Of a stretch of DNA of 64,000 nucleotides, positions 9,802 to 16,517 are shown one piece after another; the first letter of the stretch is position 1; every line of letters begins with the position of its first letter. A model generated the notes under the pieces. That model ran no database searches. It saw only the letters and a program-made list of their open reading frames with translations, and was not told the DNA's origin. The stretch is from an uncultured bacterium (GTDB lineage Bacteria > Cyanobacteriota > Cyanobacteriia > Cyanobacteriales > JAABRE01), in the NCBI GenBank assembly GCA_964413275.1, contig CAYPSO010000010.1:1575-65574 (forward strand). The letters are read 5' to 3'. The position numbers and the translations under genes were made by a program.

Positions 9802-10402
9802 TGTAATTATGTAAAGCTCGATCTATTTGTTGGTATAAATAAGTAATTGTTTGGGAATTATCTAAAATAATATCAGCAGATTGCATTTTAAGTTCTAAAG
9901 GTAATTGACTATTAATCCTTGCTTCTGCTTCCTCTAAGGTAAGATTATTTCTTTGACATAAACGCTCTGTTTGCTGTTGTTTAGTACAGATGACAACCCA
10001 AATTTCTGTAACTAAATCAGTCATGTTTGCCTCAAATAATAAGGGAATTGCTAAAACAATAATTTTGTCATCTAGTTGTTTGAGTTGGGTTACAAATTGT
10101 TCTCTAACATAAGGATGTATTTGGGATTCTAACCATTTTTTTTCGATTGGATTATTAAAAATAATATTTCCTAAAGCTTGACGATTTAACTTTCCGTTAG
10201 CTAATTTAATACTTTCCCCATATCTAGTAAAAATATTTTTGAGAATAGCAGAGTTATTGTTAACAGCTTCTCTAGCATAAAAATCAGCATCAAGAATAGA
10301 TAAATTATATTTTTCTTGTAAATAATTAGTAACAGTGGTTTTTCCCGTTGCAATTCCTCCAGTCAAACCGATTATTTTTTGTTTTTTATTTTTTTTAAAC
10401 AT
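9791..10402 (-). CDS. coaE: Dephospho-CoA kinase
   Basis: IIGLTGGIATGKTT, DADFYARE, LESQIHPYV, IPLLFE, RINSQLPL. Confidence 0.95.
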   Translation of the reverse strand: MFKKNKKQKIIGLTGGIATGKTTVTNYLQEKYNLSILDADFYAREAVNNNSAILKNIFTRYGESIKLANGKLNRQALGNIIFNNPIEKKWLESQIHPYVREQFVTQLKQLDDKIIVLAIPLLFEANMTDLVTEIWVVICTKQQQTERLCQRNNLTLEEAEARINSQLPLELKMQSADIILDNSQTITYLYQQIDRALHNYNER

Positions 10403-10522
10403 TTAATCTTGAAAAAAAGGGTATTTCTAATAGATAATAATATTATAAATATAAGACAGGAACTTCCTAGTTTAAACCTTCGTCTTTATGATTAAACTAT
10501 ATTAACCTAAATCAGATTTATC

Positions 10523-11377
10523 ATGTTTAAACAATTTTCTTATGTTTCTAAATCAGTGCGAAAAAGAATATTTTATAGCACAGTATCTATACTAACAGCC
10601 TTAACAGTTGCTTTTGCGACTCCTCAAACTACTTATGCCCTATCTTGGATTGATTTAATTTTAAGAGGAGTACAAGTTATTCAACTATCTACTATCTCTG
10701 ATAGTAATGAAGTTTCCCTTGGTAAACAGATTAACCAGCAAGTAGCATCTCAATATCCCTTATCTAATAATCAAAGACTTACTAGATATATTGATGAAAT
10801 CGGACAAAGATTAGCTAAAACTAGCTCTCGCCCGGATATTCCCTATACTTTTCAAGTAGTGAATGATAAAAGTATTAATGCTTTTGCAACTATGGGAGGA
10901 TTCGTATATATGAATACGGGCTTAATCACTAAAGCCGAAAACGAAGCGGAATTAGCTGGAGTTATTGCCCATGAAATTGGTCATATTGCCGCTCGTCATT
11001 CCATTAATCAAATGAAAGAACAAGCCATTGCCCAAGGGCTTGTTTCTGCGGCTGGTTTAGACCGCAATACAGCAGTACAATTAGGATTACAAGTAGGTTT
11101 TAAGCTTCCCAGAAGTCGTGGTGATGAATTAGAAGCTGATGAACTAGGATTAAAAAATCTAATTAAAGCAGGATATGCACCCATCGGCATGGTTACTTTT
11201 TTTGATAAGCTGATGAAAGCTCAATCAAGTGGAGCTCCTCCTAGTTTTTTAAGCACTCACCCAGCTACTGAAGATAGAATAGATCGTCTAGAATCAATGA
11301 TCGATCCTGCAACTGCTAAACAGGGTAATGGTTTAAATTCTCAGGCTTATAAAGCTAAAATCCAATCTTTACTATAA
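10523..11377 (+). CDS. M48-family zinc metallopeptidase (secreted)
   Basis: INAFATMGG, HEIGH, ELEAD, FLSTHP motifs; N-terminal signal. Confidence 0.9.
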   Translation: MFKQFSYVSKSVRKRIFYSTVSILTALTVAFATPQTTYALSWIDLILRGVQVIQLSTISDSNEVSLGKQINQQVASQYPLSNNQRLTRYIDEIGQRLAKTSSRPDIPYTFQVVNDKSINAFATMGGFVYMNTGLITKAENEAELAGVIAHEIGHIAARHSINQMKEQAIAQGLVSAAGLDRNTAVQLGLQVGFKLPRSRGDELEADELGLKNLIKAGYAPIGMVTFFDKLMKAQSSGAPPSFLSTHPATEDRIDRLESMIDPATAKQGNGLNSQAYKAKIQSLL

Positions 11378-11396
11378 AATATTGATACCTAAAAAC

Positions 11397-11441
11397 AAAC
11401 TTACTCATTATCTCTATCTAGGGATAGAAATGAGTAAGTTT
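11397..11441. terminator. Long hairpin downstream of the M48 gene
   Basis: aaacttactcat ... atgagtaagttt 12-bp arms with inner ctatc/gatag stem. Confidence 0.5.
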
Positions 11442-11781
11442 TAAAAAACTGCATTTACCCTCTACAGGGTTTATGGGATAAGATTTTTTTGATCACAAGT
11501 ACCAAAGAGCGGTTAGGGACTTGTGGTTAAATAAAGTACCATTTAAAGTGGGGTGGACAAAACCGACAGATCGAGTTTACGAGAAATTCTCAAAGCATAT
11601 TTGGCCCACCAAAAAATATATAAACTGGTATATTATTTATTTACCGAGTAGGGATGTTGAAAGCCCTCGGCTGAAGTCCGAGGGCTGGAAACGAGCGAAC
11701 CGTTCAGGTTAGAACGGACGGCTGAAATGGGCGAATGGGATTCGCCCATCGCGTCCTCCACTTTTAACCGTCCCGAAATCA

Positions 11782-11808
11782 TGGTATAATCTTTTTACTT
11801 AAAAGAGG
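11782..11808 (+). promoter_or_regulatory. Extended -10 promoter (TGgTATAAT) and RBS for tnpB
   Basis: atggtataat at 11781-11790, aagagg ~6 nt before ATG 11814. Confidence 0.55.
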
Positions 11809-11813
11809 TTTAA

Positions 11814-13193
11814 ATGTACAGTTGCCAACAAGTTCTAGTAAGTCAACGGCGCGATTATTCAGGGGGAAATAAATTCGCCGAATCTCGCGCCAAAAATAAC
11901 GACTTAATTAACATATTAACATTCTTGTGTGAAGAGTCTCATAAACTCACTAACCTGGGAATTTATTATGCTAGGCAGCTATATTTTAAAGCTAAAAAAG
12001 GAATAGGCAAGTTTGATTTAGAAAAAGAATACAAAGCGTCGAACCACTACAAAGTTTTATATTCTCAAGCTGCTCAACAAATATTAAGAACTATAGCAGA
12101 ATCTTTTAAATCTTATTATGGATTAGTTAAAGCTTATAAATCTGGAAAGATAACAGATAAACCTAGAATTCCTAACTACAGAAAAAAGAATGGTTTGGCA
12201 ACAGTTAGCTATCCCAAGCAAGCACTTAAGTTAAAAGATGGACAGATAAGAGTCCCATTGGGCAAGACTTGTAAGGCTTGGTTCGATATAGATAGCTTTA
12301 GTGTATCCATGCCTAGCAACCTTGATTTTTCTGAGCTAAAAGAACTAAGAATACTACCTCGAAACAAGTGTTTTTATTTTGAGTTTGTCTATGAAAAGCA
12401 AATAAAAAAAGCGGAATTAAATCAAAATAATGTACTTGGTATCGATCCTGGTTTAAACAATTGGTTAACTTGTGTTTCGTCTGTTAATACGAGCTTTATT
12501 GTTGATGGAAAGCAGATCAAATCAATGAATCGTTGGTACAACAAGCAAGTATCAACAATTAAGGAAAATAAACCACAAGGTTTTTGGAACAATAGATTAG
12601 CGACAATAACTGAAAAACGCAATAGACAAATGCGTGATGCTATTAATAAAGCAGCGAGAGTAGTAATAAATCATTGCCTAAAAAATAATATTGGAACTAT
12701 TGTTTTTGGTTGGAATAAACGCAACAAAAATTCAATCAATATCGGCAAGAAAAATAATTCTGAGTTCGTACCTATCCCGTACCGACGACTCAAGGACAGA
12801 ATTGCTCAACTATGCGAGCAATATGGAATTCAGTTTATTGAGACTGAAGAATCATATACCAGTAAAGCTAGTTTTTTAGATGGCGACTATCTACCTATTT
12901 ATGGTGAAAAACCCGATGATTGGAAGCCGAATGGAAAAAGAACTAAGCGAGGGCTGTATCGCACAGCAATCAACTGGTATATAAATGCAGACTGCAATGG
13001 CGCAGCTAATATCATTAGAAAAGTAAGCAGAACGTTAGGCTTAGACCTTAGCCAACTGTCTAGGGGCGTTTTGACTCGTCCCCAAAGGATTAGCCTTTGG
13101 TCAGTTAATAAAGAAATAATGCGAAGCAATGTGGATTTATCCCATTGCGAAGCTTCCTTATTAGAATCCGCCCTCATTCATGGGGCGGAGTAG
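11814..13193 (+). CDS. tnpB: RNA-guided endonuclease TnpB (rearranged RuvC-II, no Zn ribbon)
   Basis: VLGIDPG (RuvC-I D), IVFGWN in place of IVxE, FIETEESYTSK, INADCNGAANI (RuvC-III D). Confidence 0.92.
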   Translation: MYSCQQVLVSQRRDYSGGNKFAESRAKNNDLINILTFLCEESHKLTNLGIYYARQLYFKAKKGIGKFDLEKEYKASNHYKVLYSQAAQQILRTIAESFKSYYGLVKAYKSGKITDKPRIPNYRKKNGLATVSYPKQALKLKDGQIRVPLGKTCKAWFDIDSFSVSMPSNLDFSELKELRILPRNKCFYFEFVYEKQIKKAELNQNNVLGIDPGLNNWLTCVSSVNTSFIVDGKQIKSMNRWYNKQVSTIKENKPQGFWNNRLATITEKRNRQMRDAINKAARVVINHCLKNNIGTIVFGWNKRNKNSINIGKKNNSEFVPIPYRRLKDRIAQLCEQYGIQFIETEESYTSKASFLDGDYLPIYGEKPDDWKPNGKRTKRGLYRTAINWYINADCNGAANIIRKVSRTLGLDLSQLSRGVLTRPQRISLWSVNKEIMRSNVDLSHCEASLLESALIHGAE

Positions 13194-13209
13194 TCAATAA
13201 TCCCTTAGT

Positions 13210-13416
13210 TCACTTAACGACATCTACTAAAGCTTCTGATTTGAATTGAATTGTACCTGAGCCGGAATAGCGATAACGCTCACCAAGAAATACTGATAAT
13301 TTGATGTTGGTTTGATTAGGAGTAAAGATATACTTTACGGTACAAACCTGCATTTTATTTTTGAAATAGGCAATAATGCGATCGCCAATTTTAATATTTA
13401 AAGCTTGAATTTTCAT
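13210..13416 (-). CDS. Small hypothetical protein (beta-rich, possibly SH3/KOW-like)
   Basis: 68-aa ATG ORF; IKIGDRI start resembles KOW-like motifs. Confidence 0.55.
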   Translation of the reverse strand: MKIQALNIKIGDRIIAYFKNKMQVCTVKYIFTPNQTNIKLSVFLGERYRYSGSGTIQFKSEALVDVVK

Positions 13417-13756
13417 CCTTTCACCTAAATTTTATTCTAAATCTTCCAAATCTTCTTCTCTTTCTAAATCAGAAATTGAGGTTTCAATAATGTATTCTAT
13501 TTCTTCTGAAATTAATAAAGAAACTGCAATTAGCTTATGATTAATGACATATAGCCAAAATTAAACAGAAAAAGAACACTTTCGATCTTCTAGTAACGGA
13601 TAGTCTGCTAAAGATATATAATGATAGGACTAAATATATTTTGATTGTTCATGTTGGGATTATAACATTTTTTTTAAAATCTTGCTCAAAACAAAAATAC
13701 TTGATATAATCACCAATCCAAAAATTAGAAAAGAACTTTAGTGAGATGAAGCAGAT

Positions 13757-13792
13757 TTGAGTTCTCCGCGCCTTAAAAGAGCGAGGATTCTA
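13757..13792 (-). mobile_element. IS200/IS605 right end (omegaRNA scaffold end) of the second tnpB
   Basis: Minus strand: TTA-GAAT-CCTCGC-tcttttaag-GCGCGG-AGAAC-TCAA, same architecture as the first element's right end. Confidence 0.8.
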
Positions 13793-13812
13793 AGCAGATG
13801 TTGCTACCCGGT

Positions 13813-15099
13813 CTAAAGACACGCGGAGCAACGCTTACGATATGATTTAGATAGACTATCCAATCTATACCGTTGTGGGAGACTCAAAACTCCCCTAGCT
13901 ACCTTGGCTAAATCTACATTTAGCTGTGTAATTACCTTACGAATAATATTACTTGAGCCGTTACAGTCAGCGTTAATTAATTGACCGCTATTAGTCTGAT
14001 ACAACCCCCTTTTTATCCTTTTTCCTGATGGTTGCCACCCGTCGGGTTTTTCGCCAACTGTAGGTAGCAAATCATCATCTAAGAAAGAAGCTTTTGAGGT
14101 ATAACTTTCTTCAGTTTCAATAAACTTAATCCCGTATTGGTCACACAATTGAGCCAGACGAATTTTAAGCTTGGCTGTGGGAATCTGGACAAAATTCTGA
14201 TTATTCTTTTTTCCTATGTTAATAGAATCTTTTTGTCTTTTGTTCCATCCAAAAACCACAATAGAAACATTGTTATTAAGACACCAATTTACGATCAATC
14301 TAGCTCCTTTATTCACATTATCTCTCATTTGACGGTTACGCTTTTCGGTTAAGTCTGCTAATTCATCATCCCAATAATCTTGAGATTTTCCTGTCTTAAT
14401 TTTAGCAACACGCTTGTTATACCATTGATTTTGAGACTTCACTTTTTTGCCATCAACAACAAATGATTTACCAATGTTAGAGACACAAGTTAACCAGTTA
14501 TCTAATCCATGATCAATCCCCAAAACATTAAGATTGGGGTCAATCTTTTTAAGAGCATCTTGACTATAGACGCATTCGAGATAAAAGCAGCGATTTCTCG
14601 GTAAAATACGAAACTCTTTTACCTGCTGATAATCTATGTTGCTTGGCATTGGCAACAGAAAATGGTCAATTCCAAACCAAGTTTTGATCTGCTTCCCTAA
14701 AGGAATTTTTAAGAAACCTTCTTTAGTCAATTTAATCCATCTTGCAGGACAGCTAACAACAGATATGCCTCCTTTTTTACGATATTTTGGAGGTCTAGGC
14801 TTTTGAGTTAATTCTCCTTTTTTCCAAAGGGATAAAAGTTTCTTGTAAGAAGTAAAAGATTCAACAACCTCATGTAATACTTGTTGAGCACAAGCTGACC
14901 TCATTGCTTGAAAATGAGGGTTGCTTTTTAAGACTGAATCAAGCTCATACTTACTCAAATAACGATCAGCTTTGAATAATATTTGACGACAATAGTAGAT
15001 ACCACAATTAGCTAACTTATTGGCTTCGCTACAGATAAACTCTAAGATAGCTCTTACATCATCATGAGGATGAATTAAAATTTGCTGGCAACCATACAT
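13813..15099 (-). CDS. tnpB: RNA-guided endonuclease TnpB, second copy
   Basis: VLGIDHG, IVVFGWN, FIETEESYTSK, INADCNG; RBS GGAGG upstream. Confidence 0.92.
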   Translation of the reverse strand: MYGCQQILIHPHDDVRAILEFICSEANKLANCGIYYCRQILFKADRYLSKYELDSVLKSNPHFQAMRSACAQQVLHEVVESFTSYKKLLSLWKKGELTQKPRPPKYRKKGGISVVSCPARWIKLTKEGFLKIPLGKQIKTWFGIDHFLLPMPSNIDYQQVKEFRILPRNRCFYLECVYSQDALKKIDPNLNVLGIDHGLDNWLTCVSNIGKSFVVDGKKVKSQNQWYNKRVAKIKTGKSQDYWDDELADLTEKRNRQMRDNVNKGARLIVNWCLNNNVSIVVFGWNKRQKDSINIGKKNNQNFVQIPTAKLKIRLAQLCDQYGIKFIETEESYTSKASFLDDDLLPTVGEKPDGWQPSGKRIKRGLYQTNSGQLINADCNGSSNIIRKVITQLNVDLAKVARGVLSLPQRYRLDSLSKSYRKRCSACL

Positions 15100-15850
15100 A
15101 ATTTTTCCCTCCTGTCGATATAATATATTGATTCAATGTTTTTGTCTGATAAGTAGTTACGGCTTTTTCTAAAGTCATAGTTCTCACTTTTCCAGATTGG
15201 GAATTAGCTTGGAATACTTTGTTATTAGTAATATCAAACCCAGTTAACCAACCACTTTTAGGATGGTAAACTCCTGTATCAATATCTAGCCAACCTTCAC
15301 CTTGAACTAAATTTCCGGGTTTCACCTCTGGAAAGGTAAAGGTCATACTATGGCCGATGATAATTAATTTATCTTCAAAATAAGGTTTTTGAATATTGTG
15401 AAATTCTCCTCGAATCCAGCAAAAATGCTCTGAAGATTGTTGATTTAGAGATAAGTTAGGAGATAAGCCGGCATGAACTAAAAATACGTCTCCTAAATCT
15501 AAATAGGTTGGTAAGTCTTTCATCCAATTTAAATGTTGATAGGGGATTTCATTGTTATAACTAGCTAAAGTTGAACTACCCCCCGCTCTTAACCAAAAAT
15601 TAAGATTTTCTGGGTTTATTTTGCCATAACCGATGGTAAATAGCAAAATTTCTTCATGGTTTCCTAAAACACAGGGATAGTCGTTATCTATCACAAACTG
15701 TACTACTTCTGCGCTTTTTGGTCCTCGATCTATTAAATCTCCTAAAAAATAAACCTCATCTTGTTTTCCTGGTGCGATCGCCTCTAATAATAACATTAAG
15801 GTATCATAGTGACCATGTACGTCACCAATAACTATTCTACGTTGGCTCAT
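15062..15850 (-). CDS. Metallophosphoesterase (PPP Ser/Thr phosphatase family); C-terminus reads into tnpB
   Basis: IGDVHG, LGDLIDRG, LGNHE, VHAG, IIGHS, DTG motifs. Confidence 0.9.
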   Translation of the reverse strand: MSQRRIVIGDVHGHYDTLMLLLEAIAPGKQDEVYFLGDLIDRGPKSAEVVQFVIDNDYPCVLGNHEEILLFTIGYGKINPENLNFWLRAGGSSTLASYNNEIPYQHLNWMKDLPTYLDLGDVFLVHAGLSPNLSLNQQSSEHFCWIRGEFHNIQKPYFEDKLIIIGHSMTFTFPEVKPGNLVQGEGWLDIDTGVYHPKSGWLTGFDITNNKVFQANSQSGKVRTMTLEKAVTTYQTKTLNQYIISTGGKNYVWLPANFNSSS

Positions 15851-15920
15851 TATTGCTCAATTTTTAATCTTAATTTTATATATTCATAATAAAATTAATT
15901 GAAATTAATTGCTTAATCAG

Positions 15921-16517
15921 ATGACTATTTCTACTAAAAAAATTAATATTCTTAAAACACCAACTCAAACTCCTTGGATAGAACAAGCTATTAATAATTT
16001 AGATGTTATTTTATTAGATCATTCCCATTGCGAAAGAAAAGCGGCGGGAGTCGCTTTAAATATGATGTTTCGCTATCCTTCTTATACGTATTTAATCCAT
16101 CAGTTAACTGCTATAGCCAAAGAAGAATTAGAACATTTTGAATTAGTAAACAATTGGTTAGAACGTCGAGGCATAGCCCTTGCTCCTTTAAATTCACCTC
16201 CCTATGGAGCAGAATTAAAAAAGTTAATTCGTCACCAAGAACCGGATCGCTTACTTGATTCTCTCCTCATCTCAGCTTTAATCGAGGCACGCTCCCATGA
16301 AAGATTAGGATTATTAGCCGAGCATTGTCCAGAGCCTGAGTTAGCAAAATTTTATCATAGTTTAATGGCTTCAGAGGCCAGACATTATGGTATTTATTGG
16401 CTTTTAGCCGATTATTATTGTGAGAGAGAAATTGTGACAAAACGTTTAGAACAATTAGCCATAGCAGAAAGCAAAATTTTAGATAATTTATATTATCAAC
16501 CAAGAATACATAGTTAA
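15921..16517 (+). CDS. miaE: tRNA-(ms2io6A) hydroxylase
   Basis: LLDHSHCERKAA, EELEHF, IEARSHER, SEARHY diiron motifs; ATG 15921 preferred over TTG 15909. Confidence 0.9.
   Translation: MTISTKKINILKTPTQTPWIEQAINNLDVILLDHSHCERKAAGVALNMMFRYPSYTYLIHQLTAIAKEELEHFELVNNWLERRGIALAPLNSPPYGAELKKLIRHQEPDRLLDSLLISALIEARSHERLGLLAEHCPEPELAKFYHSLMASEARHYGIYWLLADYYCEREIVTKRLEQLAIAESKILDNLYYQPRIHS

Follow-up and report, generated by a model that had tools for sequence, protein, structure and literature searches.

Results

A tnpB gene inside an interrupted repeat

The window, by which we mean the whole stretch of 64,000 nucleotides that was analysed, comes from a stromatolite cyanobacterium and contains, at positions 11645-13197, a 1.55-kb insertion sequence of the IS200/IS605 type that carries tnpB only. 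All sequence features named in a preliminary description of this DNA were found where it had placed them, and their coordinates are collected in Table 1. The element sits within one copy of a short repeat present in about 20 copies in the genome, some 18 of which are uninterrupted and colinear across the junction, thereby providing internal empty sites. From these copies the junction reads TTAC/TAATCCC (the slash marks the point of insertion), with no duplication of the target; the uninterrupted copies read TTGC where the interrupted copy reads TTAC, and both continue with TAATCCCT. Homology to the other repeat copies breaks off at 11644, and removal of 11645-13197 in silico restores a colinear repeat with neither gap nor duplication. 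Members of the IS200/IS605 family insert in this manner, on the 3' side of a particular tetranucleotide and with no duplication of the target site. The boundaries of the element and an empty site of the form ATTTAC/TAATCCCTT had been predicted beforehand, and both are borne out by the paralogous uninterrupted copies, which run straight through the junction.

The preliminary description had also proposed a search for the empty allele in related genomes. Paralogous repeat copies in the same genome give the junction, but the orthologous search was uninformative: in a genome of the same genus (G001) the whole block 11360-15162 is absent, and this genome therefore offers no base-level empty site. 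Among public runs, the stretch is contained in four DNA runs, all from one stromatolite study, and in no listed RNA run. Contigs of the four DNA runs bridge both element junctions. None of them joins 11644 to 13198; since contigs drop rare variants, the missing join says nothing about excision.

Table 1. Features of the element and its flanks (positions in the window)
Feature	Position	Strand	Remarks
Host repeat, left part	11508..11644	+	about 150 bp, MITE-like; from homology among copies
TTAC	11641..11644	+	target tetranucleotide and left cleavage site, predicted TAM; directly 5' of the element
Left end (LE)	11645..11813	+	169 nt, ends just before the ATG of tnpB; architecture common to relatives
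AAAG, left guide tetranucleotide (GL)	11660..11663	+	+16..+19, 5' of the hairpin foot
Left subterminal hairpin (IPL)	11662..11686	+	7-9 bp stem, 7-nt loop
Second LE hairpin	11729..11747	+	8-bp stem, 3-nt loop; read from sequence
Extended -10-like box TGnTATAAT	11782..11790	+	about 25 nt upstream of ATG; candidate tnpB promoter; read from sequence
tnpB CDS	11814..13193	+	459 aa; stop TAG 13191-13193
Predicted omegaRNA scaffold	13020..13197	+	about 170-200 nt, contained entirely in the 3' part of the ORF; from covariation and drop in dS
GAAT, right guide tetranucleotide (GR)	13164..13167	+	invariant within TTAGAATCC in 48/48 aligned right ends
Right subterminal hairpin (IPR)	13168..13188	+	arms 13168-13173 / 13183-13188
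TCAA	13194..13197	+	right cleavage site, last bases of the element; invariant in selected loci
Host repeat, right part	13198-13207		
Predicted 20-nt guide	13198..13217	+	flank-encoded; position from the scaffold boundary at TCAA

Element ends

Both ends carry subterminal hairpins in place of terminal inverted repeats, as is the rule in IS200/IS605 elements. The foot of the left hairpin (arms 11664-11670 and 11678-11684, with a stem extendable to 9 bp) lies exactly 19 nt from TTAC. As single-stranded DNA it folds at -11.2 kcal/mol (z = -3.3 against shuffles), and relatives have an equivalent hairpin, likewise followed 3' by a second one. The right hairpin reaches z = -3.75 against shuffles when folded as single-stranded DNA, and its stem covaries across the paralogs and 48 loci. 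The guide tetranucleotides AAAG and GAAT occupy the IS608 positions 5' of the hairpin feet, from where they would specify the cleavage sites by base-pairing. An end grammar of the IS608 type, with TTAC, AAAG, GAAT and TCAA placed by hairpins, had been recognised in the preliminary description, and each of the four was recovered at its coordinate. The fifth base of the proposed (T)TTAC, on the other hand, found no support, as no more than 8 of 16 relatives have a T ahead of TTAC.

Across the window there are two occurrences of the composite right-end pattern, at the element and at the neighbouring tnpB2 (0.00 expected), and one of the left-end pattern (0.05 expected). The neighbouring tnpB2, a paralog, has lost its left end. 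TCAA is the precise limit of similarity among seven paralogous right ends from the same genome and 49 from other genomes. The seven, and 49 of 80 other cyanobacterial loci, have in common TTAGAATCC, then a hairpin that covaries, then GGAG and TCAA, and divergence sets in directly afterwards. On the left side, TTAC flanks the end in the closest relative (L128, 85% amino acid identity), in 16 of the 17 relatives with a pattern-detected left end and in all five copies from Anabaenopsis, which start immediately after it. L128 shares the ends of the element and is inserted at another TTAC, and relatives with a TGAC target have CAAG instead of AAAG at the GL position. The TGnTATAAT box is also present in L128; a promoter consensus scan of the left end called no promoter, the box having no -35 match.

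The TnpB protein

The encoded protein scores 173.5 bits against the guided_TnpB profile NF040570 (cut-off 100 bits) and is matched by both PF01385 and PF07282. It contains GIDPG (D211), IVFGWN (G299), ETEESYTS (E343, E345 and E346) and NAD (D393). Across 116 family representatives, down to about 30% identity, D211, G299, E346 and D393 never vary. The preliminary description had pointed out intact aspartates at RuvC-I and RuvC-III, a glycine at RuvC-II and a later glutamate, all of which these representatives share. In a profile alignment to Cas12f, G299 falls at the canonical RuvC-II glutamate, and E345-E346 fall on the Asp-Pro that precedes YTS. E346 is located 47 residues past G299 and two before Y348, after a beta strand (340-344). 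On the basis of this alignment, of its position in the secondary structure and of published models for the class, E346 is taken to complete an Asp211-Glu-Asp393 site in place of Gly299. The TnpB zinc ribbon is absent: there is no cysteine between Y348 and D393, in agreement with the earlier remark that a four-Cys ribbon is lacking, and only one of 115 aligned representatives has four cysteines in this stretch. The DPG at RuvC-I (D211-P212-G213) occurs in 12 of the 116 representatives, most of the family having D-Leu-Gly.

An AlphaFold2 model (pLDDT 91.7, pTM 0.88) places strand 340-344 just ahead of E345 and E346, and its top Foldseek matches are Cas12f, ISDra2 TnpB and Fanzor2, with E-values down to 1e-17. 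A 16-aa N-terminal insertion is modelled with low confidence; it is also found in the closest relative and is therefore probably tolerated. The C-terminal tail of the model (441-459) is disordered. Among PDB sequences, single-sequence and narrow-profile searches returned no match, and Cas12f and TnpB were reached only with a profile of 122 family sequences, which matched ISDra2 TnpB and Cas12f but not Fanzor2. Compared with relatives in other genomes, dN/dS is 0.105-0.12 over codons 1-400, hence the protein is under purifying selection.

An RNA scaffold predicted within the coding sequence

In the last ~59 codons of tnpB, dS falls from 0.85 to 0.14, and conservation of third positions rises from about position 13016. 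The same codons contain five covarying helices, of which helix 4 pairs in only 64% of cells and is tentative. In an alignment of 48 sequences the paired fraction of cells is 89%, compared with 68% after shuffling, and double changes are seen in 373 cells (121 in shuffles), a number reached by none of 500 shuffles; slid controls of the RNA model pair at 36-55%. The RNA fold of the region has a z-score of -3.77. Taken together, the collapse of dS, the five covarying helices and the disordered C-terminal tail of the protein model point to an omegaRNA scaffold, predicted from sequence comparison, that is embedded in the 3' end of tnpB and ends at TCAA. The right hairpin probably doubles as the 3'-terminal stem of this RNA, although covariation in the terminal hairpin could come from constraint at the DNA level (binding by TnpA) instead of the RNA level. 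Searched against Rfam at E <= 1, positions 10000-16500 matched no omegaRNA family, the sole match being a chance snoRNA. A long-range pairing between a CTAAG-type linker and bases 5' of GAAT was considered and rejected, being weak under partner shuffling (6.06 against 5.62 +/- 0.11) and inconsistent in its partner positions.

The guide had been placed directly 3' of TCAA in the preliminary description, a position that fits the seven paralogous and 49 foreign right ends, which lose similarity exactly there. The first 10 nt of the predicted guide are the tail end of the host repeat, and the stop and last codons of a 68-aa ORF on the minus strand follow. The only match to the guide of at least 14 nt in the assembly is its own site.

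Transposase genes and relatives

No tnpA lies within 11645-13197, as had been noted before. This copy thus lacks the Y1 HUH transposase that characterises IS200/IS605 elements and is non-autonomous. Three intact Y1 tnpA genes are present elsewhere in the genome. A tnpA with matching ends, proposed earlier as a check, did not emerge among them: the loci (on contigs C2, C231 and C126) have other hairpins beside them and different-looking ends, and these contigs end inside the elements. Two weak resolvase matches in the genome lie on contigs without tnpB, and no contig of the genome that carries tnpB has a resolvase-type gene. The element is single-copy in the assembly and its nearest paralogous DNA is 84-85% identical, so that nothing shows recent transposition; nowhere else in the genome is its left end matched.

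There are thousands of relatives, and those that are named are almost all cyanobacterial. In other genomes the family is multi-copy and mobile, as in Anabaenopsis with its five copies. A full Y1 tnpA stands beside tnpB in 12 of 80 related loci, with partial matches in three more; locus L084 has, besides its Y1 tnpA, a TTAC followed by 19 nt whose last four are AAAG and then by a hairpin. None of the relatives seen carries an IS607 recombinase.

Discussion

We consider it very likely that the locus is a tnpB-only IS200/IS605 element with ends of the IS608 type and a RuvC-II-rearranged TnpB. It probably integrated as single-stranded DNA 3' of TTAC, within one copy of the MITE-like repeat and without duplicating the target. 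For its working we propose the following course. Once tnpB is transcribed, the 3' end of the mRNA (approximately 13020-13197) would fold into the omegaRNA scaffold, its last stem being the same hairpin that the Y1 transposase would bind as DNA. Transcription would continue into the flank, and processing of this RNA would leave a guide of about 20 nt (13198-13217). A Y1 TnpA acting in trans could then excise the element and restore a site made of TTAC and the guide-matching flank. TnpB and its omegaRNA would cut this restored site, with TTAC as the presumed TAM, and repair from a sister copy still holding the element would bring it back. Such retention by cut and repair is proposed here by analogy with other IS605 elements, for which the mechanism is established.

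The closest parallel for the ends is IS608 of Helicobacter pylori, which is mobilised by a Y1 HUH TnpA. All four tetranucleotides (TTAC, AAAG, GAAT and TCAA) are identical in the two elements, as are the 19 nt from TTAC to the foot of the left hairpin, the subterminal hairpins at both ends and the absence of target duplication; the IS608 left end also has potential secondary structure on its 3' side, comparable to the second left-end hairpin described here. In contrast to IS608, our element is missing tnpA, its right spacing is 9 nt instead of 10, and its hairpin sequences are unrelated. The proteins differ as well: IS608 TnpB falls in the 'typical' clade and has both the canonical glutamate and a zinc finger (PMC10691335), whereas the protein described here is of the rearranged kind and lacks the finger.

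With regard to the active site, the protein finds its counterparts among the RuvC-II-rearranged TnpBs, variously named 'TnpB2' (Jiang et al., 2023), 'Ealt' (Yoon et al., 2023) and the RIIr clades (Altae-Tran et al., 2023), which include TvTnpB. In this class the canonical glutamate is replaced by Gly or Pro. Like its members, the protein has a glycine there, a conserved and presumably alternative glutamate about 45 residues downstream (47 here) and two before YTS, and a RuvC-III motif of the form NADxN. TvTnpB from Thermoplasma volcanium likewise resides in an IS605 element, one that encodes a Y1 TnpA; it cleaves DNA, uses a TAM equal to the target site and shows no collateral activity (PMC10530073). 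Its TAM is NTGAC, in contrast to the TTAC predicted here. Moreover, the major RIIr-5 clade conserves a C4 zinc finger according to the PNAS survey, and this finger is absent from the present family. In its overall fold the protein resembles ISDra2 TnpB (8h1j; TM-score by target 0.74) and AsCas12f (E = 1e-17), with which it would also share an omegaRNA overlapping the 3' end of the gene and a guide derived from the flank. ISDra2 TnpB and Cas12f, however, have the canonical RuvC-II glutamate and a zinc ribbon. Unlike in ISDra2 TnpB, the ORF reaches to within 4 nt of the end of the element, and hence the entire predicted scaffold is coding sequence.

The element is therefore a well-preserved, ordinary example of a large described class. 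An E-to-G rearranged TnpB clade with an alternative glutamate has been reported (PMC10691335), and there are published accounts of IS605 elements that carry only tnpB, of the replacement of Glu by Gly and of homing guided by an omegaRNA. In the literature searched we found no description of a tested member of the cyanobacterial family without a zinc ribbon.

The preliminary description had called the protein Fanzor-like, and this label is apt for the position of the glutamate alone, which it shares with Fanzor2 and the IS607 pro-Fanzors. One could go further and see in the locus an IS607-type element or a 'pro-Fanzor', kin to the cyanobacterial TnpBs that travel with serine recombinases and are thought to be ancestral to Fanzors. 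The combination of DPG at RuvC-I with the alternative glutamate is the Fanzor and pro-Fanzor fingerprint, pro-Fanzors occur in Cyanobacteria, the phylum of the host, and the model matches Fanzor2 (9b0l) in Foldseek at E = 4e-12. Against this reading stand hairpin ends, TTAC and TCAA cleavage sites, no target duplication, relatives with Y1 tnpA instead of a serine recombinase, and no resolvase gene near any tnpB of the genome. The protein also lacks the CxxC...CxxC zinc finger that follows six residues past the alternative glutamate in Fanzors and pro-Fanzors and is required by definition; DPG is not conserved in a family that mostly has D-Leu-Gly; and the family profile finds no sequence match to Fanzor2. 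Of the readings weighed here, we regard this one as the least probable. Scarcely more credible is a domesticated, nuclease-dead derivative that acts as a TldR-like RNA-guided regulator. The loss of the canonical RuvC-II glutamate and of the zinc ribbon might suggest so, as might the loss of the left end from tnpB2, but D211, E346 and D393 do not vary among the representatives, the element is intact at either end, members of the family are mobile and multi-copy elsewhere, and one member of the same rearranged class is active (PMC10530073).

A more serious contender concerns the present state of the element and leaves its identity untouched. It could be intact but fixed, an immobile passenger that persists until it decays: if the cell has no cognate TnpA there is no excision, and TnpB would have nothing to home against. 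The single copy, the unmatched left end and the unlike ends of the three Y1 tnpA loci all speak for this possibility. Purifying selection on an intact ORF, as seen against relatives in other genomes, and the completeness of both ends speak against it. Furthermore, the draft consists of 266 contigs with fragments at the ends of C220, C235 and C246, and given that such contigs break at repeats, further copies, and partners with tnpA, may have escaped assembly. We hold immobility to be possible but less likely than not.

We think it rather unlikely that the family is sister to the IS607 pro-Fanzors, with Y1 elements as its carriers, or that it could supply compact nucleases that have a 4-nt TTAC TAM, an all-coding guide RNA scaffold and no collateral activity. 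A sister relationship, if true, would mean that the Fanzor-type active site first arose on IS605 elements of cyanobacteria and that serine recombinases were adopted later. What is joined in this large and almost wholly cyanobacterial family is the lack of a zinc finger, a glycine at RuvC-II, an alternative glutamate and carriage by Y1 elements, with DPG in the present subgroup. The TAM and cleavage behaviour of one member would characterise a large branch of compact RNA-guided nucleases, and its activity would show whether such an enzyme can do without the zinc ribbon. In kind, the locus itself offers little novelty; its value is that of an unusually clean worked example. The host repeat supplies roughly 18 internal empty sites, which define the junction with single-base precision; all four end tetranucleotides are those of IS608 despite the different class of TnpB; and within a single ORF the substitution rates show constraint passing from the protein to the RNA level.

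Ends and insertion site

The preliminary description had placed a tnpB gene within IS608-type ends, and direct reading of the window recovered every end feature where it had been put (see table). In IS608 the published cleavage tetranucleotides are CL = TTAC and CR = TCAA and the guide tetranucleotides GL = AAAG and GR = GAAT; 19 nt separate TTAC from the foot of the left hairpin, and TCAA is <=10 nt away from the right one (PMC3201880; PMC5934647). The element is therefore identical to IS608 in all four tetranucleotides and in left spacing (nineteen bases between TTAC and the hairpin foot); its right spacing is one base shorter. Folded as ssDNA, both hairpins are clearly better than shuffled sequence. 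The composite right-end pattern occurs twice in the window (0.00 expected by chance) and the left-end pattern once (0.05 expected).

Coordinates of the element, its host repeat and neighbouring features
Feature	Position (window unless stated)	Context	Basis
TTAC	11641-11644	left	read from sequence
AAAG	11660-11663	left	read from sequence
Left hairpin, minimal arms	11664-11670 / 11678-11684	after AAAG	read from sequence
tnpB	11814-13193	sole ORF between the ends, 459 aa	
In-frame insertion	11844-11891	48 nt, near tnpB N-terminus	
GAAT	13164-13167	directly adjoins right hairpin	read from sequence
Right hairpin arms	13168-13173 / 13183-13188		read from sequence
TCAA	13194-13197	five bases beyond right hairpin	read from sequence
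Predicted guide RNA scaffold	roughly 13020-13197	wholly coding	
Predicted guide	13198-13217		analogy with tested TnpBs
Host repeat, ~150 bp, MITE-like	11508-11644 + 13198-13207	~20 genome copies	
Further repeat copies, examples	own genome, C6:23012-23155; C92:11570-11718		
68-aa ORF	13210-13416	minus strand	
Second tnpB (tnpB2)	13757-15140	minus strand, 428 aa	
tnpB2 right end	13792-13757	TAGAATCC...TCAA	
Phosphatase ORF	15062-15850	upstream of tnpB2	
Solo right end	own genome, C66:22261-22335	stem-loop, TTAGAATCC, hairpin, TCAA	

The insertion site could be read from the element's own genome, a 266-contig MAG from stromatolite metagenomes, which we searched. The 135 bases left of TTAC are part of a repeat with termini TTAGGGAC... 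and ...TAATCCCT(T/A)A and a long inverted repeat inside. About 18 other copies run past the point at which the element starts, with TTGC and then TAATCCCT, which also stands right after TCAA in the window. Once 11645-13197 is removed, the window copy aligns colinearly with the intact copies, with no gap and no duplicated base, which confirms to the base the empty site predicted beforehand and shows that the element inserted without target duplication, 10 bp from the right end of the repeat. The target in this copy is TTAC; the repeat consensus is TTGC. In the same-genus genome G001 the upstream peptidase gene is joined directly to the downstream phosphatase gene, and since all of 11360-15162 is missing there, it offers no orthologous empty allele finer than that absence.

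A non-autonomous IS200/IS605 element

The end grammar is shared across the family. Seven paralogous right ends in the same genome are alignable up to TCAA and unrelated beyond, with compensatory changes between the hairpin arms. Among 80 loci from other genomes, almost all cyanobacterial, 49 fit a strict right-end definition, TTAGAATCC followed by a hairpin, GGAG, 1-4 bases and TCAA, beyond which they diverge at once. At the left end, closer relatives also show TTAC, then about 19 bases with AAAG as the last four, then a hairpin, and so do five copies in one Anabaenopsis genome whose similarity starts right after TTAC; L128, which at 85% aa identity is the nearest relative, is located at a different TTAC. 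Target and guide tetranucleotides change jointly among relatives: TTAC goes with AAAG in the window element, L084 and L128, and TGAC with CAAG before the left hairpin in four relatives (L082, L090, L093, L101), the type of paired change predicted by the IS608 mechanism. A full-length Y1 tnpA lies beside tnpB at 12/80 loci, with partial matches at three more; ahead of the L084 tnpA stand TTAC, 19 bases of which AAAG are the last four, and a hairpin. The element's own genome holds three intact Y1 tnpA genes, two adjoining tnpB genes of the same family, and none of its tnpB contigs carries a resolvase-type gene. Hairpin ends of this shared grammar, Y1 tnpA in relatives and the lack of a resolvase-type gene on those contigs thus mark the element as a non-autonomous IS200/IS605 member, and we rejected IS607. 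A solo right end elsewhere in the genome, without recognisable tnpB upstream, may derive from a paralogous element by miniaturisation or decay.

The TnpB protein and its resemblance to Fanzors

The 459-aa protein scores 173.5 bits on NCBIfam guided_TnpB (cut-off 100) and matches both Pfam TnpB domains. A word-indexed search returned 6171 relatives at E <= 1e-10 among 8000 candidates scored, the named ones nearly all cyanobacterial; when representatives at 50% identity were searched exhaustively, 2747 passed this E-value limit. D211, G299, E346 and D393 are unchanged in 116/116 full-length representatives, whose identity goes as low as about 30%, position 345 is Glu in 95, and four Cys between YTS and NAD occur in a single sequence. 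At least seven tnpB copies in the genome share these motifs. Aligning a 122-sequence profile to Cas12f matched G299 with the RuvC-II Glu of canonical proteins, and E345-E346 with the Asp-Pro that these proteins have before YTS. E346, two residues before the Tyr, occupies the alternative-Glu position, which Yoon et al. define as lying six residues ahead of the zinc finger's first Cys (PMC10711439). It is likewise the alternative glutamate that Jiang et al. (PMC10530073) put at a distance of about 45 residues, a distance that is 47 residues here. The largest rearranged clade of Altae-Tran et al. has this Glu-to-Gly change with an alternative Glu, and is likened to RuvX, with Glu on strand 5, not strand 4 (PMC10691335). 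In our AlphaFold2 model (pLDDT 91.7, pTM 0.88) G299 closes strand 293-299 and E345/E346 come after strand 340-344, positions that would fit a RuvX-like arrangement. The in-frame insertion encodes 16 aa of low model confidence; it is shared only with L128, has no second copy in the genome and includes an imperfect palindrome.

How Fanzor-like is this protein? The label given to it earlier holds for the alternative-Glu position, and both parts of the fingerprint of Yoon et al., DPG at RuvC-I and the alternative Glu, are present; Foldseek on the model returned Cas12f, ISDra2 TnpB and, lower down, Fanzor2. Membership of Fanzors or pro-Fanzors is rejected. DPG is found in only 12/116 family representatives, most having Asp-Leu-Gly; the definition demands a zinc finger, whereas this family is without one and rides on Y1 elements; and at the sequence level the family profile finds Cas12f and ISDra2 TnpB, not Fanzor2. 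Given these features, the resemblance lies in the position of one residue.

Predicted guide RNA, activity and mobility

For RNA tests we aligned the terminal 180 bases from 48 elements. RNAalifold predicted 33 pairs, 25 with compensatory changes. In a 36-pair model 89% of cells are paired (68% in shuffles; 36-55% in slid controls), with 373 double changes against 121 expected, reached by 0/500 shuffles; we regard one helix (64% of cells paired) as tentative, and covariation of the terminal hairpin may be owed to TnpA binding as DNA. Against its two closest relatives, codons 1-400 of the window tnpB have dN/dS 0.105-0.12 and dS 0.85-0.89; the last 57-59 codons show a lower dS, 0.14-0.22, and a higher dN/dS, 0.47-0.90. 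Third-position conservation goes up from about 13016, and the model leaves the C-terminal 19 residues disordered. Together with the covariation, these features delimit the predicted scaffold. The 'conserved' Leu-Leu-Glu-Ser tail motif is no more than a translation of invariant bases around GAAT. The predicted guide matches >= 14 bases of the assembly solely at its own site; other repeat copies have 10-11 bases in common with it and TTGC instead of TTAC.

The element is of a kind already known. Its anatomy as described beforehand is right down to the details, and the proposed function is plausible. The rearranged, IS605-borne TvTnpB cuts DNA with a TAM matching its own insertion site and has no collateral activity (PMC10530073). 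TGAC, the target in L082, L090, L093 and L101, is also its tested TAM core. In four DNA runs, all belonging to a single study, contigs span both junctions at flank depth and contain no empty-site join, although contigs cannot reveal rare variants. The element is single-copy in its genome, and the suggested search for a tnpA with matching ends found none among the resident tnpA loci. Activity, TAM and present mobility are thus predictions, based on the family to which the element belongs, its intact motifs and the purifying selection on its gene.

Neighbourhood of the element

The 3.8-kb block 11360-15162, in place of which G001 has the peptidase and phosphatase genes 56 bp apart, comprises the repeat with the IS, the 68-aa ORF, an AT-rich spacer and tnpB2. 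The latter is of the same class, 55% identical to and convergent with the first tnpB, and has an intact right end and no left hairpin. The native C-terminus of the phosphatase is gone, and its ORF continues into tnpB2; the phosphatase of G001 terminates near the point at which homology ends, 15163. The 68-aa ORF has no Pfam match and is conserved at 78-84% DNA identity in several further cyanobacterial genomes (G015, G034, G017, G020), and its stop codon falls within the predicted TnpB guide.
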